The notes: generated from the letters alone by a model not told the origin. A stretch of DNA of 64,000 nt from Bacteroidales bacterium (GCA_045598885.1 JAZRVB010000162.1:2809-66808); one strand, 5' to 3'; shown: positions 15,996 through 63,672, counted from the stretch's first letter. Program-made: numbers and translations.

Positions 15996-16200
15996 AATGG
16001 ACATCCTGCCCTCACGACGTCCGTTCTTGTTTGCAGGAATGGACATCCTGACCCCACGGCGTCCGTTCTTGTTTGCAGGAATGGACATCCTGACCCCACG
16101 GCGTCCGTTCTTGTTTGCGGGAATGGACATCCTGCCCTCACGACGTCCATTCTTGTTTGCAGGATCGGACAACCTAAAACCGTGGCGTCACATTTTGCAG
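15996..16200. repeat. tandem array A1: 4.9 copies of a 42-bp unit (AATGGAC, 16 nt, GTCCRTT, 12 nt)
   Basis: Units start at 15996, 16038, 16080 and 16122. A decayed fifth unit runs to about 16200. Confidence 0.95.
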
Positions 16201-19104: not shown

Positions 19105-21111
19105 TTATTGGTGCAGGAGACGTGCTCCGCTGATCTCTGTACTCGTCTCTCCTAACCAGCCACAGGTCTGCTGCATGGCGCTATAGACACGGATAAAGTG
19201 AACCTTGGAGAGCTTGACAGGTTGTCGTGTAGCAGGATCGACGGCCCAGGAAAGGTCGAAGGAACATCCTGCGACATCCGAGTTAGGGACATTGTCGACA
19301 TAGCCGTATTCGAAAGGATGGAGTTCCCATTGAGAACCATTGCCGCTCTTCTCTACGCTGTTGTCTGGCAGTCGCGTACCTGTGAACGATAGCGGAGAAG
19401 TGAGCCATTGAGGGAAGTAGGGTTGGTCATGAAACTCATTGCGATAGATGAATCCCTGTTGTCCCTGATTGTTGCTCCAAGGGATGTCGGCCAAGCCTGT
19501 GTCCTGATACTCTACCTTATAATTATATATAATAGGAGTAGTCGTGTTGGCACTCTCGGTGGAAGAAGCGCTTCCTGCCAGTTCATACCAGGTGTCATCG
19601 GGGATTCCATTGTCATTCTCATCGACCGAAACCATCACGATACCTGGCTCGCTGCCATTGACGTTGGCATTGCCAAAGATCTGAAGGTCGTATTCTCCTT
19701 CGATGTTCTGTACAGGCTGAACAAAATGGAAGGTGATGAAACCTCCGAAACTGCCGAGCGTCACCAGACCGTTGCGATTCTCTCCTATGGCTTCGAAACA
19801 TTTCTGAGCCATGGTGTTAGCATCATCGCCATCCTCGTAGAGAGGCAAGGTGTTGACGAACTGGCCAGGTGCTGGCACATACTCATCGACACCGGCGATG
19901 AATGGGTCGGAGGGACAGGTACCTTGACCCTGACCAGTCGGGTCAAGGTACCTGTCCCTCTGACCCACAAAGGCTGCGCGTGAAGGTATGTCGCCTGTCC
20001 AGACACGCCAGTCGAAAGAGCCGTCTGCGAGGAAGTGCAGGAGCTCTCCACTTGAGACATAGTTCTTGGCATCCATCAAATAAAAGTCTCTCGTCTCAGG
20101 ATTGGCTATGAGGCCATAGGGATGCACCAGCTTCGGTTCCTGCCATTGTGATGGCGAGGGGAGAGACTCTCCATTGCGCGTATTAATTAATGAAAGGAGC
20201 GGATGGCCTTGATCCGTAGCACAGAGACAGAAGAGCGTATCACCTGCCAAGGAGAAGCTCGTGACGGGAATGTCAAAGGTATGGAGCTTGGTTGGTCCTG
20301 AGGGCTCCAGACAATGCAGCTGAGCGGGTGTCTTGCCGTAGTCGCCACGGCTGGTGATCCAGAGATGACCCTGCTTGTCTGCCACGACATGATGCAGGTT
20401 TGGAGCGATGTCGATGGTCTCAGAGACGCTCATCTTCGGCAGAGAGAGGTCGATGACGCTCATCGTATGATCGTAATCCGGAGCGCGATAACCACCGCTA
20501 TTGGCCACATAGAGGCGGTTCTGGACGACGGCCATCTCCTCTGGCTGATAACCTACGAGGACGGAGTCAACCTTCTGCAGCGAGAGCGTATCGACCTTAT
20601 AGACGCAACCAAGCGGAGCGTCGTTGCCTTGCTGCACGCCACCGACGTAGGAGCTGACATACGCAAAACCGTCATGGAAAGTCACGTAGCGAGCGTTAGG
20701 AATATTGACTTGTCCGATGCGACGTGCATCAGCCGCATGGCAGACCTCCACCTTGTTGGAGCAATTGACTACGATCCAAAGACGACTGCCATAGATCTGG
20801 ATGTCATTGCCGACATCGCCAAGCTCGAATACCGTGGATGGATTCTGCTGTCCGTAGATGTTGCGAAGGTAGTGAATACGCTGATCCTTGCCCGTCCATT
20901 GGCCAGAGAGGTCGAGATAGTCGAGCGTACACTTGTTCGATCCCATATTGCCTTCGCACAGGACATACATACCAGCGATGCTGGAAGACGTGGCAGGAGA
21001 GGAGCCTAACGGAGTATCGATGACATAAGACACATACTCATCCTCCCTGCACGCTGAGAGCGTCAGGAGGCAGAGGAGGATTGTTATGAGATGGTGTCTT
21101 AGAATTCGCAT
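19105..21111 (-). CDS. two-domain surface lipoprotein: YncE/DUF5074-like beta-propeller plus C-terminal beta-sandwich-like domain
   Basis: Lipobox LTLSAC. Propeller-type repeats (YVLCEGNMGSN, LYVANSGGY, HLWITSRGDY), then about 270 aa of C-terminal domain. Overlaps the receptor gene by 13 nt. Confidence 0.7.
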   Translation of the reverse strand: MRILRHHLITILLCLLTLSACREDEYVSYVIDTPLGSSPATSSSIAGMYVLCEGNMGSNKCTLDYLDLSGQWTGKDQRIHYLRNIYGQQNPSTVFELGDVGNDIQIYGSRLWIVVNCSNKVEVCHAADARRIGQVNIPNARYVTFHDGFAYVSSYVGGVQQGNDAPLGCVYKVDTLSLQKVDSVLVGYQPEEMAVVQNRLYVANSGGYRAPDYDHTMSVIDLSLPKMSVSETIDIAPNLHHVVADKQGHLWITSRGDYGKTPAQLHCLEPSGPTKLHTFDIPVTSFSLAGDTLFCLCATDQGHPLLSLINTRNGESLPSPSQWQEPKLVHPYGLIANPETRDFYLMDAKNYVSSGELLHFLADGSFDWRVWTGDIPSRAAFVGQRDRYLDPTGQGQGTCPSDPFIAGVDEYVPAPGQFVNTLPLYEDGDDANTMAQKCFEAIGENRNGLVTLGSFGGFITFHFVQPVQNIEGEYDLQIFGNANVNGSEPGIVMVSVDENDNGIPDDTWYELAGSASSTESANTTTPIIYNYKVEYQDTGLADIPWSNNQGQQGFIYRNEFHDQPYFPQWLTSPLSFTGTRLPDNSVEKSGNGSQWELHPFEYGYVDNVPNSDVAGCSFDLSWAVDPATRQPVKLSKVHFIRVYSAMQQTCGWLGETSTEISGARLLHQ

Positions 21112-23033
21112 TGTAGTGTACAGAAGAATTGCCGACCTGGCATCGGGTAATTGATGATGACGTCGTATTGCTGATCGAAGAGGTTATTGACTTGCAGCGT
21201 AGCTTGCATCGTGGTGGCTCCAAGATGGAATCGTCCAACCAGAGACAGATCGCTCGTATACCACGGCTGTAGGTGATTGTATGCGATATTCTCCTGCTGG
21301 CAGTAGCGTTCGCCGGTATAGACGAAGTTGTAGGTCAAAGACCAGTCGCGCCACGACAGCGAACCTGTAGCAGAACCGCTGTGCCAAGGCGTGTAGGGGA
21401 TCTGATCTCCGTAATAAGAATCCGCTCTGTCCGTCTTGTCACGCGCCTGCTGATAGGTGTATTGCAGATGTGCGAAGAGCTTCAGATCCTGTGTCAGTTG
21501 CCACTCGTCAGAGGCTTGTACATCGATGCCATCGATCACGACATGACCGAGATTCAACATCGTCCAGCGAAACTGCTGACCTTTCGGATAAGCCACGATC
21601 TTATCGTTGACGACGTTGTGATAGGCGTCGATGGTCAGGAACTTATATTTCAAACCGATGGAACTCTGAGTAGCCTTCTCTGGTCGCAGATTCGCATTTC
21701 CAATCTCGGTGTAATACAGGTCATTGAACGTCGGCATGCGGAAGCTCTGCTTGACGAAAGCATGCAGTTGCAGCGACTCATCAGCGAAAGGCTTGACTTT
21801 GAGGAATAAGGCAGGTGTGAGGTGCGAGGTATTGCCAGACGAGGATCCAGCTTTGGTCGCATCGCTGTAATGAGAGCAGACAAGGCTGCCATGCAACTGT
21901 AGCCAGTGCCAGTCAAAGGCGGTGGCAAGACCCAGGAGATGTGACCAGCGGGAAGGGGAGGCGAAGAGGGCTTTGTCTGACCACAGCGTGTTGTATCGGA
22001 TATCGTAGCTGGCAGCCACGTTCCACCACGGCGTGATGGCAAGCAGGTGCGACATGCTGGCGTAGGCTTCCTGCTGTCGGTACTGCTGGTTGACCTGCAT
22101 CGTCGCAGCATCCTTATTGATGTAATGAGTGCCGTAGTAGGCGTATTTGCCTAAGAGTCGCAGGGAATAGCGTTCTGTGACATCAGCCTGCCACTGGCCT
22201 TGAAGGAAGGTATTGCTGTCAGATTGACGCTCACCTCGTCGCCACACGTTATTTACGATGGCACCAGGGATGCCGCGGTTCGACAGGTAGGTGTATGCCT
22301 TGACATGCGCCAGCTGGTTGTTATCTCCACGATACCACAGGTTGGCCTCCGCACGGAGCGACTGGAGGTCCCCGTTGTGACGCGTAGCCGTGGTGTCGTA
22401 GGCCACCGTGTTGTCGTAGTTGAGGCGACGGTAGTTGAAATGATATCGGCCGTCACTGGCCATCCCCTCGGCATTAGCACTTAATAGCCAGTGGTCGGAG
22501 AGACGCTGATCCCAGCTGAGCGAACCGCGTAGCAGTTGGCTGGCACCTGTCTGCAGTTTGGCTTTTCGGTGCGAAGGATGCTGGTCGGAGAGGCGAGGGG
22601 CTTGCGTACGGATGTAGACGCTGCCGGCATTGACCAGATCGCTGGCTGTCTGCATCAGAGCCGATCGTTGACCGTTGTAGACAGAGATTTCCTCGATGTT
22701 GTCCAAAGAGAACTGGCCGAGATCGATCTGCCCATTCTGTGCATTACCCAGCTCGATGCCATCGTAGTAGATGCCGACGTGCTGCGATCCCATGCTGCGT
22801 ATATTGACCGTCTTGAGTCCTCCTATGCCACCATAGTCCTTGACCTGCACACCGCTCATCAGGCGTAGGGCGTCGGCCACAGTGTGTGCACTGACACGCT
22901 GCAGCATCTCTCCGCTGATCTTCTGTGGAGCGATGGTCTCCTGGTGGCGCAACTGACCCTGCACGGTTACTTCATTAACCACGCGTATAGAGTCCAGCAT
23001 GCCAATCAGCACCAGACAAGTAGCAATCATCAA
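21099..23033 (-). CDS. btuB: TonB-dependent receptor, cobalamin-type by context
   Basis: Plug domain (VADALRLMSGVQV, GIYYDGIELGN) and a 22-strand-size barrel ending in the aromatic CEF. Directly downstream of a cobalamin riboswitch. Confidence 0.8.
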   Translation of the reverse strand: MMIATCLVLIGMLDSIRVVNEVTVQGQLRHQETIAPQKISGEMLQRVSAHTVADALRLMSGVQVKDYGGIGGLKTVNIRSMGSQHVGIYYDGIELGNAQNGQIDLGQFSLDNIEEISVYNGQRSALMQTASDLVNAGSVYIRTQAPRLSDQHPSHRKAKLQTGASQLLRGSLSWDQRLSDHWLLSANAEGMASDGRYHFNYRRLNYDNTVAYDTTATRHNGDLQSLRAEANLWYRGDNNQLAHVKAYTYLSNRGIPGAIVNNVWRRGERQSDSNTFLQGQWQADVTERYSLRLLGKYAYYGTHYINKDAATMQVNQQYRQQEAYASMSHLLAITPWWNVAASYDIRYNTLWSDKALFASPSRWSHLLGLATAFDWHWLQLHGSLVCSHYSDATKAGSSSGNTSHLTPALFLKVKPFADESLQLHAFVKQSFRMPTFNDLYYTEIGNANLRPEKATQSSIGLKYKFLTIDAYHNVVNDKIVAYPKGQQFRWTMLNLGHVVIDGIDVQASDEWQLTQDLKLFAHLQYTYQQARDKTDRADSYYGDQIPYTPWHSGSATGSLSWRDWSLTYNFVYTGERYCQQENIAYNHLQPWYTSDLSLVGRFHLGATTMQATLQVNNLFDQQYDVIINYPMPGRQFFCTLQCEF

Positions 23034-23039
23034 AACTCA

Positions 23040-23285
23040 GTTTCTTTGTTAACGTCAATAGAAGTGTCCCGTCCTGTCGATCGCAGGAGTCATGAGTGGG
23101 CGCTCTTTGCAGCAGGTCTTCTGGCTCGTCCTGGCTCGGTGTACTGTCTTCCCGCCTGTTAACATGGGCAGTGACATTCAAGGTACGTCGGCAACTAAGT
23201 AGGACACACAGCAGCGGGACTGTTCCGGATTCGCACCGGATTCCCTTTTGATCCGCACTTGGTCAGGGTGCAGAACTGCAAAGCG
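23040..23285 (-). promoter_or_regulatory. cobalamin (B12) riboswitch
   Basis: The minus strand reads AAAGGGAATCCGGTGCGAATCCGGAACAGTCCCGCTGCTGT (23207-23247) and a B12 box GAGCCAGAAGACCTGCTGCA (about 23108-23127). It lies between a TATCTTTG promoter and the receptor ATG. Confidence 0.9.
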
Positions 23286-23313
23286 AAGTGAAAAATAAGT
23301 TTTTTCAGTGGTG

Positions 23314-24902: not shown

Positions 24903-26612
24903 ATGATCAAATCTATCCGAACCCGCGTTTTGCCTCAGATATGGGCCGATGCGGAACGACTCGAAGAGCAACTGTGCAAGGAGAATGCCATCAGCCGAAA
25001 AGCGCTGAAAGGTATCCGAATGAAACACACCAGCATCGACGCGCGTCAACGTCAAGTGATGGTGCAGCTCGACGTGGATCTATATATTAATGAGCAGCCA
25101 CCTGTTCTTCAGTTTCAGCCAAAGCTCTATAAGGAACTGCCAGCCGATGCACCACAGGCAATCATCGTAGGTGCAGGTCCTGGTGGATTGTTTGCCGCTC
25201 TTCGCCTCATAGAGTTAGGAGTGAAGCCTATCGTTCTGGAGCGTGGCCGTAACGTCACCGATCGTCGTCGTGATGTAGCCATGATCACCCGTGAACAGAA
25301 AGTCGATCCTGAGTCAAATTTCTGCTTCGGAGAGGGTGGCGCAGGTGCATTCTCCGATGGTAAACTCTTCACGCGCAGCAAGAAGCGTGGCAATGTGCAA
25401 GGAGTCCTCGAAGGTCTCTGCCAGTTCGGTGCAGACACGGGAATCCTTGACGCTTCGCATCCGCATATCGGTACCGACCGCCTGCCTGCCATCATTGCCA
25501 ATATCCGTGAGAAGATCATGGAGTGTGGCGGAGAGATCCATTTCGAGACAGCGGTGGAGGAGCTCATCCTCAAAGGAGATTCTCACTCCTCACTTCCAAT
25601 TCCTCACTCCTCACTCCTCACTCCTCACTCTGTTGTGGGTGTCCGTACCCGCAACGGTCACGAGTTCCTCGGTCCCGTCATCTTAGCCACAGGTCACTCA
25701 GCACGCGACATCTATCGCATGCTGCATCGTCAGCATATTCTCATTGAGGCGAAAGGTCTGGCCATTGGTTGCCGTCTGGAGCATCCACAGTCGCTTATCG
25801 ATCAGATACAGTATCATAGTAAAGAGGGTAGAGGTAAGTACCTGCCAGCCGCAGAATATAGCTTCGTAACGCAAGCTACAGGCAATCTGAATCAGAAAGG
25901 TGCCACCGCAGGTGTGCAGCGTGGCGTCTATTCGTTCTGTATGTGTCCTGGTGGCGTCATCATCCCTTCGGCCACAGGTCCTGAGCAGGTAGTAGTCAAT
26001 GGTATGAGTGCCAGTGCGCGTGGCAGTAAATGGGCCAATGCTGCGATGGTTACGGAGATACGTACAGAAGACCTGCAGGAGCTCGCTACACAGTTGCCTT
26101 TGGCTGAGACTCCTACAGGTCGTATGTTCGAAGGCGAGGAGCTGATGTCTTCACCTCTGGCCATGATGGCCGTACAGGAAGCCATCGAGCAACAGTGTTG
26201 GATGAATGGTAACCGCACCCAGGCGGCTCCTGCTCAGCGTATGACCGACTTTGTGCGAGGTCGTCTCTCTGCTGATCTGCCAGCGTCGAGCTATACGCCT
26301 GGTGTCATTGCCAGTCCTATTCATTTCTGGATGCCACGCTTCATCTCTGCTCGTATGCAGCAGGCGCTCCAGTTCTTTGGACAGCGTGCGCGTGGTTTCC
26401 TGACCGAGGAGGCGTTGCTCGTCGGCGCGGAGACGCGTACCTCTTCGCCTGTCCGAATCCCACGTGACCGAGAGACTTTCTGCCATCCGGTCGTGCAGGG
26501 GCTCTATCCTTGTGGCGAAGGCGCTGGTTTTGCCGGTGGCATCGTCAGTGCAGCGATGGATGGTCAGCGATGTGCTGAAGCGTTGGCTGGTAGTTGCTTC
26601 GGCCGAGTATAG
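24903..26612 (+). CDS. NAD(P)/FAD-dependent oxidoreductase (COG2509-like)
   Basis: GAGPGGLFAALRL dinucleotide-binding motif, ATGHSARD, and the C-terminal GEGAGFAGGI. Carries an in-frame heptamer-repeat insert at 25581-25630. Confidence 0.8.
   Translation: MIKSIRTRVLPQIWADAERLEEQLCKENAISRKALKGIRMKHTSIDARQRQVMVQLDVDLYINEQPPVLQFQPKLYKELPADAPQAIIVGAGPGGLFAALRLIELGVKPIVLERGRNVTDRRRDVAMITREQKVDPESNFCFGEGGAGAFSDGKLFTRSKKRGNVQGVLEGLCQFGADTGILDASHPHIGTDRLPAIIANIREKIMECGGEIHFETAVEELILKGDSHSSLPIPHSSLLTPHSVVGVRTRNGHEFLGPVILATGHSARDIYRMLHRQHILIEAKGLAIGCRLEHPQSLIDQIQYHSKEGRGKYLPAAEYSFVTQATGNLNQKGATAGVQRGVYSFCMCPGGVIIPSATGPEQVVVNGMSASARGSKWANAAMVTEIRTEDLQELATQLPLAETPTGRMFEGEELMSSPLAMMAVQEAIEQQCWMNGNRTQAAPAQRMTDFVRGRLSADLPASSYTPGVIASPIHFWMPRFISARMQQALQFFGQRARGFLTEEALLVGAETRTSSPVRIPRDRETFCHPVVQGLYPCGEGAGFAGGIVSAAMDGQRCAEALAGSCFGRV
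25581..25630 (+). repeat. CTCACTC heptamer tract inside a CDS
   Basis: TCTCACTCCTCACTTCCAATTCCTCACTCCTCACTCCTCACTCCTCACTC, translated as SHSSLPIPHSSLLTPHS. Confidence 0.95.
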
Positions 26613-44734: not shown

Positions 44735-44897
44735 AACATCCATCCTGCACGCAAGACGTCCATTCTCGTAACAAGGAATGGACGTCTTGCGTTCAAAATG
44801 TCCATTCCCGCAACAAGGAATGGACGTCCTGCGTTCAAAATGTCCATTCCTGCAATAAGGAACGGACGTCCTGAAAGCAGAACGTCCATTATTATCT
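44735..44897. repeat. tandem array A2: 3.9 copies of the 42-bp unit (AATGGAC, 16 nt, GTCCATT, 12 nt)
   Basis: Units start at 44735, 44777, 44819 and 44861. Same 7-mers and spacing as array A1. Confidence 0.95.
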
Positions 44898-46725: not shown

Positions 46726-47457
46726 TTATCGCTTCTGGGAGTCTCTAGTCCTGAGGACATTGAGACTTCCTTTCTTATTATAGCTGATGCCATCGGTGCC
46801 TTCAGCCTTGATAAGGTAGTAGTAGGCGCCGGTAGGAACGGTGCTGCCGTTGAAGCGGCCATCCCATCCGTCTTCGGGGTTGGTGGAGTGGTAGAGCTCC
46901 TGGCCCCAGCGGTTGACGATCCAGATCTCGTAGCTGACGAGCGACTTGTAGCGGACGTGGAAGACACTGTTCCTGCTGTCGGGCGAGTCGGGTGTGATGA
47001 GGTTGGGTACTTCCAGGAGCGACTCAGTGATCTGTATCTGATAAGGTACGGAGGTCTGGTAGGTAGCGGTGGCTCCCTCTCCGAGCTCTGTTGGCGTCAG
47101 ATAGCTATTGAAATCGGCCACGAAGCGTACATAGTAGGTGCCGGACTCGTCGAAGTCGTAGTCGAGCTGCGAGGTGACGCCGTCAGGTCCGAGGACGCGT
47201 AGCTGGTCGATGATCTCCTCAAACTGATTGTCTGACGCCAGTTCCCAACTGCAGTAGTCCGGCTGCTGCGACATCTCTGCCCTAAAAGTGATTTTAAGGG
47301 GGCCAGGACCAACGAACGTATGGCCGTTGACCTTCACTGAGTCCGCGCGGTTTGCGACGTATCCTGAGGGCGCGGTGTAGGCGGTGTCGGCGACGACAAA
47401 GTCGGGAGTGAGGAGTGATGAGTTAGGAGTGAGGAATAGGAGGAGGGGAAGGAGCAT
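46726..47457 (-). CDS. T9SS type B sorting domain (gliding-motility CHU_C) protein
   Basis: The C-terminal VFHVRYKSLVSYEIWIVNRWGQELYH...GWDGRFNG...GAYYYLIKA is the type B sorting domain. The N-terminal signal region is encoded by heptamer-repeat DNA. Confidence 0.75.
   Translation of the reverse strand: MLLPLLLFLTPNSSLLTPDFVVADTAYTAPSGYVANRADSVKVNGHTFVGPGPLKITFRAEMSQQPDYCSWELASDNQFEEIIDQLRVLGPDGVTSQLDYDFDESGTYYVRFVADFNSYLTPTELGEGATATYQTSVPYQIQITESLLEVPNLITPDSPDSRNSVFHVRYKSLVSYEIWIVNRWGQELYHSTNPEDGWDGRFNGSTVPTGAYYYLIKAEGTDGISYNKKGSLNVLRTRDSQKR
47404..47446 (-). repeat. degenerate CTCACTC heptamer tract (reverse complement) forming the 5' end of a CDS
   Basis: The plus strand reads GGGAGTGAGGAGTGATGAGTTAGGAGTGAGGAATAGGAGGAGG, translated on the minus strand as LLLFLTPNSSLLTP. 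Confidence 0.85.
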
Positions 47458-52580: not shown

Positions 52581-53372
52581 ATGGCAAAACCAATCATTAT
52601 AGCAGGTCCATGCGTCATTGAGTCACAGGAGTGTCTTGATACCGTCGCTCAGGAGCTGGTACGTATCAACGAGTCGCTCGGAGTGGACATCATCTTCAAG
52701 GCTTCGTTTGACAAGGCCAATCGTACGAGTATCACCTCCTATCGTGGCCCAGGCATGGAGAAAGGTCTGCAGATGCTGGCAGACATCAAGTCGAAATATG
52801 GCCTGCGCCTGCTGACCGATATCCATGAGAGCTATCAGGCTGCTCCTGTGGCTGAGGTAGTGGATGTACTGCAGATTCCTGCGTTCCTCTGCCGTCAGAC
52901 CGATCTGCTCGTTGCAGCTGCCAAGACCGGCAAGACGGTCAACATCAAGAAAGCGCAGTTCCTGAGCGGATTGGATATGCAGTATCCTGCACAGAAGGTG
53001 CGCGACACCTGGAGCCAGGAAGGGATCGTCCCTGCGTCGATCGGCGGTCGTGACGGCCTCTGGCTGACAGAACGCGGCAATTCGTTCGGCTATAACAATT
53101 TCGTCGTTGACTTCCGTAATGTGGCTGATATGAAACAGTTCACGCCGACGGTGGTGATGGACTGTACGCACGCCGTACAACGTCCTGGCGCGGCTGGAGG
53201 TAAGTCTGGCGGCAACCGTGAGTTCGTTCCAGCCATGGCGTTGGCAGCAAAGGCTTTCGGCGCTACAGGCTATTTCTTCGAGACGCATCCTGATCCAGAG
53301 AAGGCGCTGAGCGATGGCCCTAATATGCTCTATCTGAACGAGCTGGAGAAGGTGGTCAAATCATTGTTGTAA
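52581..53372 (+). CDS. kdsA: 3-deoxy-8-phosphooctulonate (Kdo-8-P) synthase
   Basis: IIAGPCVIES, KASFDKANRTS, QIPAFLCRQTDL and DCTHAVQ. Confidence 0.95.
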   Translation: MAKPIIIAGPCVIESQECLDTVAQELVRINESLGVDIIFKASFDKANRTSITSYRGPGMEKGLQMLADIKSKYGLRLLTDIHESYQAAPVAEVVDVLQIPAFLCRQTDLLVAAAKTGKTVNIKKAQFLSGLDMQYPAQKVRDTWSQEGIVPASIGGRDGLWLTERGNSFGYNNFVVDFRNVADMKQFTPTVVMDCTHAVQRPGAAGGKSGGNREFVPAMALAAKAFGATGYFFETHPDPEKALSDGPNMLYLNELEKVVKSLL

Positions 53373-53430
53373 TTCATAATTCATAATTGATTACAATAGT
53401 AATTCGTAATTAGTAATTCATATTTCATAT

Positions 53431-55288: not shown

Positions 55289-56467
55289 GTGCGAGCGTTA
55301 ATCATAGGTCCCAAGTTCCATTACTTCAACCTGAGCGTTGAACGGGCTTTCCGTGCCCTTGGCTATGAGACGCTCATTCTGGCCTATGACAATCCGGTGC
55401 ATCCCTATACGCTCGATAATAAGATCCGTTATAAGTTTGCCGGCGATCAACTGGCCTTGAAGAAAGAGTCAAGAGCCCTGTTTCATCTGGAGGCCGAACT
55501 AGCCTTCGAAGAGTTCTTGCCCGATGTCGTCTTCGTCATGAATGGCGATATGCTGCTGTCCGATACGATCCTGCATTGGCGCGGACAACTTGAAGATGAT
55601 CCGGCTCCCGTGGAGAAACCTGCGAAGGTGGCCTTGTGGTTCTTCGATAGCATGACGCATATTCCTTTGTGCGAAGAGTGCATATCTGTCGTCGATGCCG
55701 TTTTCTGCTACGAACAGACAGATATTCCGATCATCAAGGAGAGATTTGGAGTCGATGCGCATTTCTTGCCTCAGGCGGTAGATACGGAGATCTACTATCC
55801 TATATCTTCTACCGAAGGAAAACTCCTCACTCCTCACTCTATCGAGCCCTCGGCTGAAGCCTCGTCTTCTCGCCAAGAGCATAAAAATGCTCTTTCTTCG
55901 GCTGCGAGGACCTCACTCCTCACTAAAAAATACGACATCGTCTTTGCCGGCGACATCTTCCATAGCCAGAAGCGCCGCCAGGTCATTCAAGCCGTCGTGG
56001 CTCATTATCCAAGCCTTCGAATAAAAGTCTGGGGCGAATACAAACCCTGGTATAAGAATCCATGGAAGTGGCTGACACGTGAGCGCAAGGATATCTATAT
56101 GAACCGCAACGCCAGCGGCAAGCAGCTCAATGAGGACTATAATCAGGCGCGTATCGTACTCAATATCCATCACGAGCAGCAGAAGGATGGCGCCAATCCC
56201 AAGGTTTACGAGATCGCTGCGACGTGCGCTTATCAGATCTGCGATGCCAACCCCTATATTGAGCAGCTTTTCCCAGACGGAGAGATCGGTCTCTACACCG
56301 TCGATCTGCAAGCAGGGGAGGAGCATCGTTACGACTCGCTCTTCGCATGCATCGACTACGCTCTGCAGCACGATATGACCGCTCAGGCAAAAGCGGCTTA
56401 TGAGAAGATTGTGACAAAACATACATTTATCCAACGCATCCAGCAATGTCTCGACACACTCGCATAA
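55289..56467 (+). CDS. CgeB/DUF3880-like glycosyltransferase family protein
   Basis: ALIIGPKFHYF..., YDIVFAGD and NPKVYEIAATCAYQICD resemble CgeB-type GT-B proteins. Probable GTG start at 55289. Contains a ~105-nt in-frame repeat insertion at 55821-55927. Confidence 0.65.
   Translation: MRALIIGPKFHYFNLSVERAFRALGYETLILAYDNPVHPYTLDNKIRYKFAGDQLALKKESRALFHLEAELAFEEFLPDVVFVMNGDMLLSDTILHWRGQLEDDPAPVEKPAKVALWFFDSMTHIPLCEECISVVDAVFCYEQTDIPIIKERFGVDAHFLPQAVDTEIYYPISSTEGKLLTPHSIEPSAEASSSRQEHKNALSSAARTSLLTKKYDIVFAGDIFHSQKRRQVIQAVVAHYPSLRIKVWGEYKPWYKNPWKWLTRERKDIYMNRNASGKQLNEDYNQARIVLNIHHEQQKDGANPKVYEIAATCAYQICDANPYIEQLFPDGEIGLYTVDLQAGEEHRYDSLFACIDYALQHDMTAQAKAAYEKIVTKHTFIQRIQQCLDTLA
55821..55927 (+). 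repeat. composite in-frame insertion: heptamer flanks plus a 64-bp palindromic core
   Basis: CTCCTCACTCCTCACTC (55824-55840), a core at 55847-55910 homologous to 467-524, then CCTCACTCCTCACT (55911-55924). Confidence 0.85.
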
Positions 56468-57262: not shown

Positions 57263-58123
57263 ATGAAAGTAAGTGTCATCATCCCTGTCTATAACGCTGC
57301 TCCTTACATCGCAGAGACCCTGCGTAGTGTGCAGCACCAGACCATGAGCGACTTTGAGGTGATCCTCGTCGACGATCATGGTCAGGATGACAGCATGTCT
57401 GTGGCTCAGACAGTCGTAGGCGATGATCCTCGCTTCCGTTTTATTGAGACACCAGAGAATGCGGGCCCTGGAGTGGCTCGAAACTTCGGTATCAAGGCTG
57501 CAAAGGGAGAGTATATCGCTTTCCTCGACAGCGATGATCTTTGGGAAGAGAAGTTTCTGGAGAATCTTTTCTCGGCGGCTGAGAATACTCCTCACTCCTC
57601 ACTCCTCACTCCTCACTCTTTCGATTTGACTTATTGCCAGCTCAAATATCGTGGAGGCGGTAAGGATGGCCAGGTGCATCGTAATCCTGTCATGCAGAAT
57701 GGTGTCATTGCTCCTGCGGCTCGAAAGCATTTCTTGCAGCACTTCGTTACCTTCTCGGTATGTTTTCTCTACCGACGTGATTTCCTGCTCAGCAACGAGC
57801 TGTTCTTTCCGGCTAAGCGTAACAGCGAGGATACCAACTTCCTGACGCGCTGTCTCCTGCTGGCCGATACCATTGCCTGCGTCGACGAGCCTTTATATAT
57901 ATATAATGTGCGAGAAGAGTCGCTCACCACGGGTCACAATCCGCAGCGTTATAAGGAGCGGCTGCAGAGCCTCAATGCGCTGATGCGAGACTTTAAGGCA
58001 ATGAAACAGGATTCGCGCTATAAAGAAAAGCGTCTAAGCCAGTATAATCTCGTCATGGGATGGATCTGGCTCAAGAAGGGATTGGCTCAAGCTATCAAGG
58101 AAATTGCGCTAGCGCGGTGCTGA
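57263..58123 (+). CDS. glycosyltransferase family 2 protein
   Basis: VSVIIPVYNAAPYI, VDDHGQD and the FLDSDD (DxD) motif. Carries the heptamer tract at 57588-57618. Confidence 0.9.
   Translation: MKVSVIIPVYNAAPYIAETLRSVQHQTMSDFEVILVDDHGQDDSMSVAQTVVGDDPRFRFIETPENAGPGVARNFGIKAAKGEYIAFLDSDDLWEEKFLENLFSAAENTPHSSLLTPHSFDLTYCQLKYRGGGKDGQVHRNPVMQNGVIAPAARKHFLQHFVTFSVCFLYRRDFLLSNELFFPAKRNSEDTNFLTRCLLLADTIACVDEPLYIYNVREESLTTGHNPQRYKERLQSLNALMRDFKAMKQDSRYKEKRLSQYNLVMGWIWLKKGLAQAIKEIALARC
57588..57618 (+). repeat. (CTCACTC) x about 4.4 perfect heptamer tract inside the GT2 CDS
   Basis: CTCCTCACTCCTCACTCCTCACTCCTCACTC, translated as TPHSSLLTPHS. Confidence 0.95.
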
Positions 58124-58163: not shown

Positions 58164-60668
58164 GTGAATTACATCAAGAAACTCTGGCCCTATCTTGTGG
58201 CCCTCATCGTCTTCACTGCGGTGGCATGTATCTACATGTCGCCAGTCCTCGATGGCAAGGTTATCGCTACCTCTGACGGTATTCAGGGACGTGCAGCCGT
58301 GCAGGAGGCGGTGTCTTATTATCAGGAGACTGGCAATCGTACGTGGTGGACAGGCTCCATGTTCTCAGGCATGCCAAACTACCAGATCGGTGGTGGCCGA
58401 TTCACAGCGCAGAACTGGATGCAGCCGATCCGCGAATTGCTCCTCTGGGGACACAGCAATGTCATTGCCATTGTCCTGCTTTATTGCTTAGGCTTCTTCG
58501 CACTGCTTCGCAGCATGAAGGTAGATAAGTGGCTGAGCATCGTCGGCGCGTTGGCCATCGCGTTCTCATCTTATTTCTTTATCATCATCGGTGCCAATCA
58601 CCACAGCAAGACTTCTACGCTTGCCTTGATGGCTGCGGTGATAGCCGGCTTCTATCTGATCTTCCATGGTCATCGTAAGACCGGTATCTGCATGACGATG
58701 ATCTGCTCGGCTGTCGGTTTCTTCCCGCATCCGCAGATGTCGTACTATATGTGTTTTATTATCGGATTCTTCTGGTTGGCAGAATTGTGGGATGCAATTA
58801 AGGATAAGGCCTGGAAAGCCTTTGGTATTAGTACTTTGTTCTTCGTCGCCGCCTTCGGCATCGGTCTTGGCACCGGCACAGGCGCCACCTTCACCAACCT
58901 TGAGTACGCTCAGGAGACCATGCGTGGCGGAGGTTCAGACCTTGCCAAGGACAATGACAATGAGAATAAGACCGATGGCCTCGATCTCGATTATGCCACT
59001 GCCTGGAGCTATGGCATCGATGAGTGCTGGACGTTCCTGATTCCTGACTACATGGGAGGATCGTCGAACTATAACGTCGGTAGCGACAGCGAGCTCTGTA
59101 AGCTGATGGTGCAGCAAGGTGTGCAGCGCAAGCAGGCCGAACAGTTCTGCCAGAGCCTGCCAACCTATTGGGGCGATCAGCCATTCACAGCAGGTCCTGT
59201 CTATATGGGCGCCATCGTCTGCCTGCTCTTTGTCCTCGGTTTGCTGATTGTCAAAGGTCCATACAAGTGGGCGCTCTTAGGCGTGACCATCCTCTCCGTG
59301 ATGCTGTCATGGGGTCACAACTGGATGGGTCTGACCAAATTCTTCTTCGATGTTGTGCCGATGTATAACAAGTTCCGTGCCGTATCATCGATCCTCGTCA
59401 TTGCCGAAGTCACCATGCCATTGCTCGGCTTCCTGGCTCTCAAGCGCCTCTGTGAGGTCAAGCAGCTGGCTGTTGAGGCCGCTAATGGTTCGGTAGAGAA
59501 ATATAATGCCGATGCTTCGATCCAGCAGATGATCCGTCAGTTGACGATTGCCGCTACGGTCATAGCATGCTTGCTTATGATCGCATTCCTTACCACTTCA
59601 GGCTTCACCGGAGCAAACGATGCCAATATGTTCTCACAGTTGCCAGAGTGGCTCAGTGATGGTCTTATCATGCAGCGTGAGGCGATGTTCAAGGCCGACT
59701 GGGCTCGTACGCTCGGCTTCGTCCTCTGCGCCTTTGTCTTCCTTTTCGTCTATCTTAAGATGTACAAGATGCAGGGTACAGCGCTGGTGGCTCTCGTCAT
59801 GGGCGCTTTGATCCTGTGCGATATGTGGCCGGTCGACAAGCGTTATATGAACGATGGCATGTTCTCTAAGGGCAACAGCTTCGAGCAGGCCTTCAAGATG
59901 CAGCCATGGGAGAAGCAGATCCTCGATAACGACAAGGATCCGAACTTCCGCGTCATGAACCTTGCTGCCAGCACCTTCAATGACGCTCGCACCTCTTACC
60001 GCCTCAAGTCCATCGGTGGCTACAGCGCTGCCAAGCTGCGCCGCTACCAGGACCTCATCGACGAGCATCTCAGCAAGATGCACTGGCCTGTCATCGATAT
60101 GCTCAATGCCAAGTATATCATTTTTGCCGACAAGGAGTCTGGCCAGACGGGCGTGCAGCTCAATCCGAATGCCATGGGCAACGCTTGGTATGTCGATACG
60201 CTCATCGTGGTCGATACTCCAAATCAGGAGTGCGACGCCTTGATGCAGTATGACCTGCATACTACCGCCATCCTCGATAAGGAATTTGCTGGGCAGCTCA
60301 AGGGTTATCCTGAGTATGCACAGATCGTCAATCCTTCAGACAGCACGGCTTCGGTACAGCTCACCAAGTATACGCCAGAGTATATCGAGTATGACGCACA
60401 ATCTTCGCAGGATGGTACGATCGTCTTCAGTGAGATCTATTACCCTCATGGCTGGAAAGCCACGATCGATGGCGAGCCTGCCGAGCATTTCCGTGTCAAC
60501 TACCTGCTACGAGCTCTCAATGTCCCAGCAGGTCAGCATCACATCCGCTTCGAGTTCCGTCCTGAGTCGGTCGAGAAGGGTAATATGCTCTCCATGGCGT
60601 TTGTCATTGCGATGTATCTGATCATTGCAGGATGCGTGTTCTTGGGATTCCGCAAAAGCAACTGTTAA
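58164..60668 (+). CDS. YfhO family membrane glycosyltransferase-like protein
   Basis: 834 aa with about 13 N-terminal TM segments, a large extracytoplasmic C-terminal domain and a final TM segment. GTG start. Confidence 0.75.
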   Translation: MNYIKKLWPYLVALIVFTAVACIYMSPVLDGKVIATSDGIQGRAAVQEAVSYYQETGNRTWWTGSMFSGMPNYQIGGGRFTAQNWMQPIRELLLWGHSNVIAIVLLYCLGFFALLRSMKVDKWLSIVGALAIAFSSYFFIIIGANHHSKTSTLALMAAVIAGFYLIFHGHRKTGICMTMICSAVGFFPHPQMSYYMCFIIGFFWLAELWDAIKDKAWKAFGISTLFFVAAFGIGLGTGTGATFTNLEYAQETMRGGGSDLAKDNDNENKTDGLDLDYATAWSYGIDECWTFLIPDYMGGSSNYNVGSDSELCKLMVQQGVQRKQAEQFCQSLPTYWGDQPFTAGPVYMGAIVCLLFVLGLLIVKGPYKWALLGVTILSVMLSWGHNWMGLTKFFFDVVPMYNKFRAVSSILVIAEVTMPLLGFLALKRLCEVKQLAVEAANGSVEKYNADASIQQMIRQLTIAATVIACLLMIAFLTTSGFTGANDANMFSQLPEWLSDGLIMQREAMFKADWARTLGFVLCAFVFLFVYLKMYKMQGTALVALVMGALILCDMWPVDKRYMNDGMFSKGNSFEQAFKMQPWEKQILDNDKDPNFRVMNLAASTFNDARTSYRLKSIGGYSAAKLRRYQDLIDEHLSKMHWPVIDMLNAKYIIFADKESGQTGVQLNPNAMGNAWYVDTLIVVDTPNQECDALMQYDLHTTAILDKEFAGQLKGYPEYAQIVNPSDSTASVQLTKYTPEYIEYDAQSSQDGTIVFSEIYYPHGWKATIDGEPAEHFRVNYLLRALNVPAGQHHIRFEFRPESVEKGNMLSMAFVIAMYLIIAGCVFLGFRKSNC

Positions 60669-60694
60669 CTGTTCATTGTTAACTGTTAACTGAA

Positions 60695-61828
60695 ATGAAA
60701 ATTTCAATACTCGGTCCCTGTTGGCCCTACCGTGGTGGCATTGCAGCCTTTAACGAACGACTTGCTCATCAGCTGCAAGCCGAAGGTCATCAAGTGTCGC
60801 TCTATACATTTACGCTTCAGTATCCAGGATTCCTTTTTCCAGGAAAAACTCAATTTAGTGAAGAATCTGCACCCTCAGATCTCCTTATTGAGCGAAAACT
60901 GTCATCGGTCAATCCTTTTACTTGGCTCTCATTAGGTCGCAAAATAAACAGCGAATGCCCTGATCTTCTCATCATTGCTTATTGGTTGCCATTCATGGCT
61001 CCAGCTTTAGGTTCGGTAGCTCGTTTGGCCAAAAAGAATGGAAAGACCAAGGTGATAGGCCTCCTGCATAATCTGATTCCTCATGAGCATCGTATTGGCG
61101 ATAAGCAGTTCAGCCGCTACTTCATCCAATCCATTGATGCTGCGCTTTCGTTGTCGAAATCGGTGCTCGATGAAATATCACTCTTCAATACCCAACTGCC
61201 TAAGGTATTTTCCCCGCATCCGCTCTATGATAATTTCGGAGAACCTGCCGATAGGGAAGAGGCTTGCAAGAAACTGAGGCTCGATCCTTCTGTCCGATAC
61301 CTGCTGTTCTTTGGTTTGATCAGGAGTTATAAGGGTTTGGATTGGTTAATCGAAGCTTGTTCAAAGAGTGAAGCTATTCTGTCTGGTAGATATAAGTTGC
61401 TCGTTGCTGGCGAGTTTTATGGCAATGAGTCTGTCTATCACGAGCTTGAGAATCGCTTGTCGCTGAATAATCATATCGAATGGCATTCTGTTTTTGTTCC
61501 TGATAGCGAAGTGCGTTACTATTTTAGCGTTGCCGATCTGATTGTTCAACCTTATAAGACAGCTTCACAGTCAGGTGTTACTCAAATAGCCTATCATTTT
61601 CAGAAGCCAATGCTTGTTACCAGGGTGGGAGGATTGCCTGAGATTGTTCCCGATGGCAAGGTCGGTTATGTTGTAGATCCTGATCCGTCTGCAATAGCTT
61701 CAGGAATTGATCGCTTTGATAAAGAAACGCCAGACTTTACCGAGGGACTTTTGTCTCAAAAGCAAAAATACAGCTGGTCGGTGATGACATCTAACTTGCA
61801 AACTCTCTATAAGAATCTTCAGAAGTAA
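60695..61828 (+). CDS. glycosyltransferase family 4 protein
   Basis: GT-B fold with the E(x7)E region GGLPEIVPDGKVGYVVD. Confidence 0.85.
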   Translation: MKISILGPCWPYRGGIAAFNERLAHQLQAEGHQVSLYTFTLQYPGFLFPGKTQFSEESAPSDLLIERKLSSVNPFTWLSLGRKINSECPDLLIIAYWLPFMAPALGSVARLAKKNGKTKVIGLLHNLIPHEHRIGDKQFSRYFIQSIDAALSLSKSVLDEISLFNTQLPKVFSPHPLYDNFGEPADREEACKKLRLDPSVRYLLFFGLIRSYKGLDWLIEACSKSEAILSGRYKLLVAGEFYGNESVYHELENRLSLNNHIEWHSVFVPDSEVRYYFSVADLIVQPYKTASQSGVTQIAYHFQKPMLVTRVGGLPEIVPDGKVGYVVDPDPSAIASGIDRFDKETPDFTEGLLSQKQKYSWSVMTSNLQTLYKNLQK

Positions 61829-61852
61829 TATTTGCTGAAAATAGTTCCGGAT

Positions 61853-62047
61853 GTCATACTTCGCGCGCATTATATGACAAAAACACTTCCGTGGTGTCAT
61901 ACTTCGCGCGCATTGTATGACAAAAACATTTCGGGGTGTCATACTTCGCGCGCATTGTATGACAAAAACATTTCGGGGTGTCATACTTCGCGCGCATTAT
62001 ATGACAAAAACATTTCGGGGTGTCATACTTCGCGCGCATTATATGAC
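61853..62047. repeat. tandem array A3: 4.6 copies of a 42-bp unit (GTCATAC, 12 nt, RTATGAC, 16 nt)
   Basis: GTCATAC occurs at 61853, 61896, 61938, 61980 and 62022. Same 7/12/7/16 geometry as arrays A1 and A2, with different 7-mers. Confidence 0.95.
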
Positions 62048-62085
62048 AAACATAAATTGAAATATAAATCTTAAAATATTGAATC

Positions 62086-62871
62086 GTGTCAGATAACACA
62101 AAACCACTTCGATCACTCGCAGACTGCGATGACGAGCATGTAAAGATACAAAGAGAGAAACTCAAATTCAATCGTACGGTCAACTGGTACGCCTGCTATG
62201 TGCATCCCCAGCACGAATTGCAGTTGCATGACTACCTCATGGGCATCGAGGTAGAGAGGAAAGGCGTACGTCGTGGCAAGGCTAAGAAAGAAGACTTGTT
62301 CGTTGAGGTCGACCCTGCCAAGATGCTCATGGAATGCTATGTCCCCGTGCAGCGCATCCGCGTCAAGCTCTCTGACCGCATGGTCTGGAAGGAGAAGGTC
62401 GTCATCCCTGGCGTCATCTTCGTTCATTGCTCGATCGATAGCCGCGAGCCTTTGTTCTATGGTAAGTATAAGGAATATGTCGTCGGCTTTATGAGCGATA
62501 AAGTTCGTCATCGTCCGCAGCCTATCCCAGATTCCGAGATGGCTACCTTCCGCGCTTTGACCGAATCGGAATATGCCTATCAGATGGAGGCACCGGAGTT
62601 CAAGCCAGGCCAGTCGGTCCTGATCCTTGCCGGTCAGCTCAAGGGTCATGTCGCTGAGCTCGTCAGCAAGAAGGAGGAGATCAGCAAGACGGAGTTCCAG
62701 ACCGATCGATATGGCAAGCCGGTGCTCGATAGCGAGGGCAATCCGATCCCTAAGCATAAGATCACGCTCTGCGTCCGCCTCACAGATATGCTTTGTGCTA
62801 AGTTCGAGGTCGATTCTGACCAGGTCAGCGTTGTGCCGAAGGGTACGAAGACGAAGATTAGTTTTGAATGA
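62086..62871 (+). CDS. NusG-like transcription antitermination protein (UpxY family)
   Basis: NGN-type WYACYVHPQHELQLHDYL and VIPGVIFV. KOW-type GQSVLILAGQLKGHVAELV followed by an insertion of about 45 aa. GTG start. Confidence 0.75.
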   Translation: MSDNTKPLRSLADCDDEHVKIQREKLKFNRTVNWYACYVHPQHELQLHDYLMGIEVERKGVRRGKAKKEDLFVEVDPAKMLMECYVPVQRIRVKLSDRMVWKEKVVIPGVIFVHCSIDSREPLFYGKYKEYVVGFMSDKVRHRPQPIPDSEMATFRALTESEYAYQMEAPEFKPGQSVLILAGQLKGHVAELVSKKEEISKTEFQTDRYGKPVLDSEGNPIPKHKITLCVRLTDMLCAKFEVDSDQVSVVPKGTKTKISFE

Positions 62872-62900: not shown

Positions 62901-63222
62901 GGGGGCTCTTTTGGAGACTCTTTCCAGAGGGGGCTCTTTCCAGAGGGGACTCCTCCCAGAGGGGGCTCCTGCTCGGAGGGAGCTCCATTTCTTTGCCTTG
63001 ATGCAAAGAAGTGGAGGAAAGAAAAATCAAGGCTACGTTCCAGGAGGTTGCTCAGATTGGTCTGACTGGCAAGGAAACAAACGCAGCCTTCGGCTTTGAA
63101 CGGTGTTTCCTTGCTGGCGTCATCCTCAATCTTCGCTTTCAACCTCCTTTCACTATGCCTTTTCAACTCCCCTCGTGTCGCTCCGCTTATGCTACGCTCC
63201 TCGTCCCCTCATTCTTGAGGGG
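62901..63222 (+). repeat. element L: G-rich 16-17-bp tandem repeats, a ~225-bp structured core, and a terminal CCCCTCA/TGAGGGG hairpin
   Basis: Alignable along its whole length to the reverse complement of 63305-63672. Confidence 0.85.
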
Positions 63223-63304
63223 GTTACTATCAGCCGAAACATACTTGAGGGGGTTACTATCAGCTGAAACATACTTGAGGGGGGGGACTATCAGCTGAAA
63301 CATA
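63214..63304. repeat. three tandem 30-bp repeats (CTTGAGGGGGTTACTATCAGCYGAAACATA) at the junction of elements L and R
   Basis: Copies start at 63214, 63244 and 63274. The third copy has one extra G. Confidence 0.9.
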
Positions 63305-63672
63305 CCCCCTCAAAGATTGAGGGGACGAGGAGCGTAGCATAAGCGGAGCGACATGAGGGGAGTTGAAAGGCCATAATGCAGCAAGGCGTGAAGCAGCGCA
63401 TGGAGGATGGCGTCAGGAGCAGGCACCGTCCAAAGCCCGTAGGGCTGCGTTTGCCTGCGAGTAGTCAGACACCGTGCGATGTAGCCTTGCGGAATGTAGG
63501 CCCGACTTTTTCTCCCTCTACTCTTTTGTGTCATGGACAAAAGAGTGGAGCCCCCTCCGGGTAGGAGTCCCCTCTGGAAAGAGTCCCCTCCGGGTAGGAG
63601 TCCCCTCTGGAAAGAGCCCCTCCGGGTAGGAGCCCCCTCTGGAAAGAGCCCCTCCGGGTAGGAGAGAGTATC
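63305..63672 (-). repeat. element R: inverted, diverged copy of element L
   Basis: The 53-nt block 63318-63370 is nearly identical to the reverse complement of 63161-63213. The rest is diverged but collinear. Confidence 0.85.

Follow-up and report, generated by a model that had tools for sequence, protein, structure and literature searches.

Array A3, the tandem repeat that separates a GT4-family glycosyltransferase gene from a UpxY-like NusG paralog, is probably a recent acquisition of five modules that belong to a genus-specific superfamily. The modules of this superfamily are non-coding, dyad-symmetric and 42 bp long, and each is composed of a 24–36-bp palindrome and a linker. The modules occur singly, as homogeneous arrays, and as mixed arrays in exact register. 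Whole 42-bp units are gained or lost with breakpoints in the linker, units are homogenised within an array by concerted evolution, and the modules are located for the most part immediately 3′ of genes, in either orientation. A3 is an ordinary and recent member of this class, and it is the class that deserves the attention.

The window, by which we mean the whole 64,000-nt stretch of Bacteroidales DNA analysed here, contains five copies of the heptamer GTCATAC at the positions reported in the initial annotation; these are confirmed, as are the stop codon of the GT4 gene (TAA, starting at 61826) and the GTG start of the UpxY-like gene (Table 1). Each unit of A3 consists of GTCATAC, TTCGCGCGCATT, (G/A)TATGAC, and the 16-nt linker AAAAACATTTCGGGGT. 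Unit 1 measures 43 bp because its linker, of 17 nt, has one extra base. The 26-nt hairpin GTCATACTTCGCGCGCATTRTATGAC occurs five times with zero mismatches, compared with 0.00 occurrences expected from 100 shuffles. TRF reports the array with a period of 42, 5.0 copies, 93% matches and a score of 361, and with its degenerate, linker-like ends A3 covers approximately 61836–62056. The GT4 stop lies 9 nt ahead of the array, and the entire gap between the GT4 and UpxY-like genes spans 257 nt. The UpxY-like gene scores 80.3 bits against NCBIfam antiterm_UpxY, under the cut-off of 100, and the N-terminus of its protein aligns with those of the orthologues. A CRISPR array is ruled out for A3, as the 16-nt interval itself repeats in every unit and there are no unique spacers.

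Table 1 Features of the A3 locus, related arrays in the window and in relatives, and array families of the genome. Plain numbers are window positions.
Feature	Position, or number of arrays	Strand	Basis or remark
GT4-family glycosyltransferase gene	60695..61828	+	Pfam Glyco_trans_1_4, Glycos_transf_1, Glyco_transf_4
Array A3, family f5: five head-to-tail 42-bp modules (first 43 bp)	61838..62050		TRF and register print beside four other f5 arrays
A3 module 1 hairpin, GTCATAC-TTCGCGCGCATT-ATATGAC	61853..61878		exact pattern match
A3 module 2 hairpin, GTCATAC-TTCGCGCGCATT-GTATGAC	61896..61921		exact pattern match
A3 module 3 hairpin	61938..61963		exact pattern match
A3 module 4 hairpin	61980..62005		exact pattern match
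A3 module 5 hairpin, then decayed linker AAACATAAATTG	62022..62047		exact pattern match and sequence
UpxY-like NusG paralog, GTG start at 62086	62086..62871	+	Pfam NusG E=2.7e-9
Array A1, family f0 (AATGGACG..CGTCCATT modules)	15996..16175		TRF and sequence; just beyond FecCD permease gene 3′ end
Array A2, family f0	44758..44873		TRF, sequence, Pfam; convergent gap of A2M-like and PAP2 genes
Alternating arrays, G010	L090 18560-18860		
Alternating arrays, G383	L097 10720-11080; L099 10340-10760		
Family f0 (AATGGACG..CGTCCATT)	28 arrays		A1 and A2 among them
Family f1 (CACGGTACCGTG core)	21 arrays		
Family f2 (AGTCCGAC)	7 arrays		
Family f3 (GTCAACAC)	6 arrays		
Family f4	6 arrays		
Family f5	5 arrays		A3, C106:14078, C152:704, C67:12202, C224:11496
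Family f6 (TCAACGTT)	5 arrays		
Further clusters	several, smaller		

Repeats of other kinds are also present in the window. Tandem heptamers (ACTCCTC, CTCACTC, AACTGTT, TAATTCA, and TAACTCC) recur in and between the genes of the polysaccharide cluster, with heptamer repeats at 25582–25630, 47405–47446, 53370–53429, 55822–55839, 57587–57618, and 60660–60692; the run at 57587–57618 lies inside a GT2 ORF. Beyond the UpxY-like gene, tandem repeats of 16, 30, and 32 bp on CCCCTCTGGAAAGAG and GGGGG motifs, in an inverted arrangement (62918–63664), fill the stretch of about 1 kb before the next gene (63933 onward). Similar 17-bp repeats occupy the equivalent place in G022 (L015 2312–2362 and 3036–3092).

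The initial annotation had taken a 42-bp geometry shared by unrelated sequences as a sign of a common mechanism of origin or a common structural function, and the genome-wide distribution of such arrays bears out a shared origin or mechanism. The assembly that holds the window is an 82%-complete MAG of 3.35 Mb in 235 contigs, an incompleteness that may have collapsed copy numbers or hidden a cognate gene. Among whole-genome TRF rows with at least 2.5 copies, 89 have a period of 42, compared with 17 for the next most common period of at least 15 bp and one each for periods 41 and 43, which places the equal period of the window's arrays far beyond chance. Merging leaves 96 period-42 arrays, about 93 of them non-coding. 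Left out of the non-coding class are two arrays that form a coding repeat in a 799-aa ORF, together with one 41-bp and one 43-bp array that look unrelated; the former, at G000:C179:11495–11744, are two 42-bp-period repeats devoid of palindromes that correspond to a 14-residue protein repeat. The 42-bp arrays fall into 16 sequence clusters and at least ten families (Table 1), and 16 arrays are located at contig ends. A BLAST search with all consensus units extends the class to about 169 module-containing regions, 15 kb in total, nearly all intergenic and many of them solo units. Its members, which are imperfect palindromes of short length, extragenic, and numerous in the genome, show the features by which REP and BIME sequences are recognised. 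A3 has what defines the class, namely the period of 42, a central palindrome of 26–28 bp, the head-to-tail arrangement, the intergenic position, and family members elsewhere, and its linker is only half-symmetric, unlike that of most families.

The palindrome at the center of a module takes 24–36 bp and the linker takes the remainder, so that their sum is constant at 42, and this ruler also holds between families. When palindromes were sought de novo, with arms of 7 or more, a span of 20–36, and no family definitions, pairs of them lay 42.0 bp apart 161 times, compared with 1–9 times in the adjacent half-base bins and a random expectation of about 3.4. Pairs with dissimilar arms obey the same spacing, with 39 at 42.0 bp, 25 at 84, and 16 at 126 against about 3 per bin otherwise. 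Mixed chains, of which 17 were printed, make the register directly visible: in rows of 42, the chain at C33:24080–24330 displays six different families in succession and in exact register. In a family-weighted logo, position 6 of the module is weakly shared as G and position 37 as C, and across families there are AA/TT at positions 7–8 and 35–36 and a center that tends to GTAC/GGTACC or GGCC. Many modules are palindromic across the whole 42 bp, as in tcatggCATCC...GGATGccatga. Within one family the loop is found in flip as well as flop orientation, at times in neighbouring modules, as illustrated by CTGGTACTCA and TGAGTACCAA of f2 and by AACTTTTCTT and AAGAAAAGTT of f3.

Four paralogous composite clusters at contig ends (C26:12560–12914, C125:1–360, C149:18150–18560, and C229:8850–9180) reveal how the arrays change. 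Their right sides are 98–99% identical (84% for C229), and the clusters differ by gaps of exactly 42 columns, one comprising an f2 module and one an f1 module, with the indel breakpoints in the linker between ...TGA and (T/A)GCAGG. Because these gaps equal exactly one 42-bp module, modules are gained and lost as discrete units. The four clusters also end their contigs beside a shared sequence (GATGCTACAAACCAATTATAAATGTGACAACG...), and they probably mark the edge of a multi-copy element whose presence interrupted the assembly.

A comparison of A3 with A1 and A2, which had been described as identical in geometry, helps to define where the rule resides. The 42-bp period is shared, and A1 and A2 can be read as 7/12/7/16 like A3; the agreement of the four segments is partly coincidental because loop and linker play different roles in the two families. 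A tandem array of palindromes has two alternating symmetry centers, and the center of the module was picked from the array termini and the mixed chains. Arrays of f0 have AATGGAC at the start and GTCCATT at the end, and the in-phase center of f0 in mixed chains is AATGGAC(G)-14/16-(C)GTCCATT. This places the AATGGAC..GTCCATT hairpin centrally, and therefore the 12-nt piece of A1 and A2 is the linker. Four f5 arrays (A3, C106, C152, and C67) start with GTC(A/C)TA(C/T) and end with ATA(G/T)GAC, and one f5 unit is a perfect 26-bp palindrome, GTCCTATTTCGCGCGCGAAATAGGAC; as such, the 12 nt of A3 are the loop and the 16 nt are the linker. The general rule is the total of 42, with a hairpin span that varies across families.

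The same rule is found in relatives. At the 3′ end of the FecCD gene, the site of A1, f0 arrays are present in G000, G004, and G018 and there is none in G022. Loop sequence and copy number differ among the species and the loops are homogenised within each array, and therefore arrays persist at a site across species while evolving in concert. Sequence sampled without bias from further genomes extends this picture. In G004, which belongs to the same genus, 244 kb contain nine period-42 arrays of the same families, and palindrome spacings peak at 21, 42, 63, and 84 as they do in this genome. The more distant G010 and G383, also of the genus, have fewer arrays with quite different, GGCC-centred palindromes, ACCAATCTTGGCCAAGATTGGT and AGTACTCTGTCGGCCGACAGAGTGCT, which alternate in an A-B-A-B fashion at 42 bp (a super-period of 84 bp) and are joined by a conserved TCCGATAG linker. 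Since the period is the same and the palindromes are different, the 42-bp rule spans the genus and outlives full replacement of the palindrome. No 42-bp array is present in 120 kb of G425, of the same genus, or in 123 kb and 114 kb of G025 and G027, which come from two further families of the same order; the arrays seen in G027 are of 22, 25, 43, and 48 bp. An order-wide BLAST search with a six-module composite, insensitive in that only two candidates were scored per genome, gave no match outside this genome and is given no weight as to absence.

Changes in copy number and the shuffling of modules may arise by in-register slippage or unequal recombination via the semi-conserved linkers. Palindromy could be kept by hairpin-dependent processes on ssDNA, namely the templated correction of quasi-palindromes, or alternatively by a candidate hairpin-specific enzyme that would also seed new sites, and the places downstream of genes might tolerate such insertions or find them mildly useful. 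Some length constraint must act, because neutral descent from one founder would collect indels, and the half-base precision of 42.0 argues against simple helical-phase selection. A more far-reaching version would see in the arrays an undescribed kind of modular DNA, in which a putative dedicated hairpin-measuring machinery, independent of RAYT, would insert, duplicate, flip, and delete exact 42-bp dyad modules while keeping their register, with related 22- and 51-bp rulers in other Bacteroidales; we offer it tentatively, and on balance it is doubtful.

The position of A3 between the GT4 and UpxY-like genes had suggested a promoter or 5′ leader, and the relatives speak against this. In relatives, too, a GT4 orthologue sits 5′ of the UpxY-like gene. 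With the UpxY-like protein as query, a search recovers the same synteny at 78–87% protein identity in L001, L002, and L011, and a genus DNA search adds syntenic copies in G017, G022, G007, G023, G021, G015, G024, G010, G013, and G005. Across about 12 syntenic relatives of the same genus the GT4–UpxY gap holds no 42-bp array: the loci that were fetched have none, and in the remaining syntenic DNA matches the gap is too short for one. The gap measures about 44–51 nt in the three relatives that were read; in L001 it is 44 nt, and the difference of 213 nt from the gap in this genome equals the TRF length of A3. The L002 gap holds TAACTCC heptamers instead (heptamer runs at L002 2500–2535 and 2958–2990), and G023 has a long gap with no array. 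As the syntenic relatives are without the array and the 213-nt difference corresponds to it, A3 is a recent insertion into a short intercistronic gap, and the idea that it serves the antiterminator-like gene as a conserved promoter or leader is rejected.

The closest copy of the A3 unit in this genome is found in the C152 array (87% identity), and f5-related arrays exist at other loci of G004, G018, and G022. The diverged f5 array on C224 has a neighbouring gene whose orthologue in G004 lies beside an array (C138:13737–13976); the loop of that G004 array is TTCGCGCGCATT as in A3 and its linker is reverse-complemented, which constitutes another flip. A strain look-up by exact protein returned no match, and a metagenome scan returned only relatives at 51–54% identity.

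It is unlikely, though arguable from their placement, that the arrays are functional RNA, that is, stacks of stem-loops that stabilise the upstream mRNA, attenuate read-through, or set an expression ratio, with A3 tuning the UpxY-like gene. With home-made gene calls (codon-usage-scored ORFs, by which the UpxY-like gene was recovered correctly), an array is present in 27 of the 217 convergent gaps, in 5 of the 226 divergent ones, and in 41 of the 1597 co-directional ones (Fisher, p=3e-5 for convergent vs divergent and p=2e-9 for convergent vs co-directional). In the co-directional gaps the array lies a median of 63 nt from the upstream stop and 109 nt from the downstream start, and it is nearer to the upstream stop in 26 of the 41. 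This enrichment just 3′ of genes, with depletion in divergent (promoter) gaps, could mean function and not tolerance, and the RNA explanation also draws on the arrays kept at the FecCD 3′ end in three species and on the A3 region, which folds at −76.6 kcal/mol (z=−4.4). The absence of A3 from all syntenic relatives is at odds with it, and so is the behaviour of the two strands. Within families there is no bias of orientation with respect to transcription (f0 9:7, f1 4:3) or to local GC skew (f0 11:8, f1 9:5), both orientations being equally frequent. Stem positions are 91% Watson–Crick, and the sense strand shows no excess of G·U-type over A·C-type mismatches (47 vs 33, p=0.15, at the low power of 80 informative mismatches). 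Transversions are as frequent as transitions among the stem mismatches, and the majority of units in two of the f5 arrays are mismatched at mid-stem, as A·G or C·A (GTCATAC against ATAGGAC). Taken with the flipped loops, this lack of asymmetry indicates a strand-neutral element at the level of DNA rather than an RNA selected on one strand.

Searches for RNA signals at the locus agree with this. No terminator-like site or T-run is present in 61829–62085, where AAAAAC follows the A3 hairpins and leaves no U-tract, and A3 does not qualify as an intrinsic terminator, which combines a GC-rich hairpin with a U-tract. Rfam 15 gives no covariance-model match at E<=1 in 61700–62200 and, at gathering score over the whole window, nothing except a cobalamin riboswitch away from A3 (RF00174, 106 bits; 23094–23295 on the minus strand, upstream of the minus-strand genes at 21099–23033). 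Around A3, a sigma-70 scan, whose model is not one for Bacteroidetes promoters, yields promoter-like matches that are only repeats of the A3 unit. As a recently acquired copy of a DNA module situated in an intercistronic gap of originally about 44 nt, A3 is therefore probably carried on a read-through transcript. Its five stem-loops could act there as a REP-like barrier to 3′ exonucleases or as a partial decoupler of the two genes, and any such influence would be incidental rather than a conserved feature of regulation.

Mobilisation by a RAYT/Y1 HUH transposase, which would make the arrays true REPs whose ssDNA hairpin is recognised and cut at module boundaries, is likewise improbable. The genome has a single Y1/HUH gene (C148:15091–15546, Y1_Tnp 97 bits, 151 aa), and it is accompanied by a mixed in-phase chain and an f0 array that start about 420 bp downstream. 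A 42-bp array likewise lies about 1.1 kb from the closest orthologue of this gene (G003, 72% identity), and more distant orthologues have none. Palindromy with compensatory arm changes and the strand-neutral mismatches would also fit recognition of a DNA hairpin. Against these stands the identity of the protein, which resembles IS200/IS605 (86.7 bits, above cut-off) and falls far under the cut-off for REP_Tyr_transpos (30.6 bits, cut-off 80). Its motifs, DHIH and YIIRQKEHH, match subclass 1.2, a low-copy group of Bacteroidetes and Cyanobacteria without IS ends or REPs (Quentin et al. 2018, PMC6006769). The gene is flanked not by modules but by private 146-bp direct repeats (L012, G000:C148:14206–16065), with 2.6 tandem copies upstream and 2 downstream, that are absent from the rest of the genome. 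Y1 homologues were found in only 11 of 39 genus genomes, and none was found in G004 despite its nine arrays. Moreover, one enzyme would have to serve more than ten stem families, GTAG, CTAC, CGTC, and GACG are all missing from the A3 unit, and this genome, an incomplete MAG, has neither a gene bracketed by arrays nor a second Y1 gene. As the sole Y1 gene is of the IS200 type and the array-bearing G004 yielded no homologue, the RAYT link is unproven, and RAYT-type mobilisation is possible and unsupported in this incomplete MAG assembly.

There is little to recommend the idea that the arrays are dsDNA platforms for a dimeric or oligomeric chromosomal protein (nucleoid-associated protein, gyrase, or partition-like), with 42 bp providing four helical turns and the dyads displayed on one face. 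The exact dyad symmetry, the indifference to orientation, and the semi-conserved positions common to the families (G6/C37, AA/TT, and the GTAC or GGCC center) would suit such a platform, and the sopC centromere of the F plasmid is built of 43-bp repeats with 7-bp inverted arms. A protein that reads the shared positions, however, needs no family-specific complementary arms, and about 90 loci at gene 3′ ends are unlike a centromere. Helical phasing would in addition allow 41–43 bp and other whole turns, whereas only 42.0 is seen, and a period exact to half a base weakens the idea. Finally, that A3 is an unrelated local minisatellite matching the period of A1 and A2 by chance, for which one could cite the lack of sequence similarity beyond geometry, is refuted by the genome-wide period distribution and merits practically no credence in view of the four further f5 arrays here, those in three relatives, and the mutual register of different families.

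If the assignment of A3 to a superfamily of 42-bp modules is correct, a length rule exact to the base, and robust to full sequence turnover, shapes the intergenic DNA of an entire genus of uncultured gut Bacteroidales. Behind the constraint would stand either a putative enzyme or structure able to measure 42 bp, or some unrecognised mechanism by which the length of palindromic tandem DNA is preserved. In practice, the arrays break assemblies and yield spurious ORFs, can be mistaken for regulatory leaders (as with A3) or for CRISPR-like arrays, are candidate strain-typing loci, and may perturb gene expression in polysaccharide loci.

Several known systems share part of this behaviour. The BOX elements of S. 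pneumoniae (boxA-boxB(n)-boxC) and the mycobacterial MIRUs are tandem units of 40–55 bp with variable copy number in intergenic or intercistronic positions, and both can alter the expression of neighbouring genes. BOX has fixed end modules, and MIRUs are non-palindromic and point in the direction of transcription; to our knowledge, neither places many unrelated palindromes on one exact period. In E. coli, the REP stem-loops between malE and malF are 3′ stabilisers of mRNA. Like them, A3 lies between co-oriented genes and has predicted stable stem-loops if transcribed. It differs in that it is not conserved at its site and belongs to a class that carries no RNA-strand signature.

Within the Bacteroidales, the nearest counterparts are BrickBuilt (a 23-nt repeat) and 464/PgRS (a 41-nt tandem repeat) of P. 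gingivalis, which are MITE-like elements (PMC4596501). They resemble the arrays as intergenic direct repeats of variable copy number at about 20 loci, and the 41-nt period of 464/PgRS is close to 42 (PMC4596501). Their repeats sit between a conserved leader and tail with terminal inverted repeats (PMC4596501), whereas the five f5 arrays have no conserved leader or tail flanks and only partial linkers in common, which rules out a MITE with an internal minisatellite for A3. Phase-locked mixing of different palindromes is not described for BrickBuilt or 464/PgRS (PMC4596501). In the literature searched, 42-bp arrays are not described for Prevotella or Bacteroidales, nor is a base-exact length rule of this kind.

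The closest likeness is to the REP, BIME, and REPIN sequences of Enterobacteria and Pseudomonas (PMC3733652, PMC6006769). These too are short, imperfect, extragenic palindromes in many copies, with several families per genome that occur singly or in clusters, including head-to-tail ones, and they share the preference for gene 3′ ends and the fast turnover between species (PMC3733652, PMC6006769). The modules described here differ from REP and BIME sequences in being exactly 42 bp long and in having families that are phase-locked to each other, and the arrays run head to tail at a fixed 42 bp in place of the alternating inverted REPs of BIMEs and REPINs. A3 is without the GTAG or CGTC tag at the foot of the REP hairpin, and in place of the REPtron, in which RAYT/TnpA-REP is flanked by its repeats, the only Y1 gene found here is the IS200-like one of subclass 1.2. 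The best reading of the class is accordingly a REP/BIME-like, DNA-level modular repeat with a 42-bp ruler, and what is new here is the register between heterologous modules, the indels of exact modules, and the conservation of the period across the genus.
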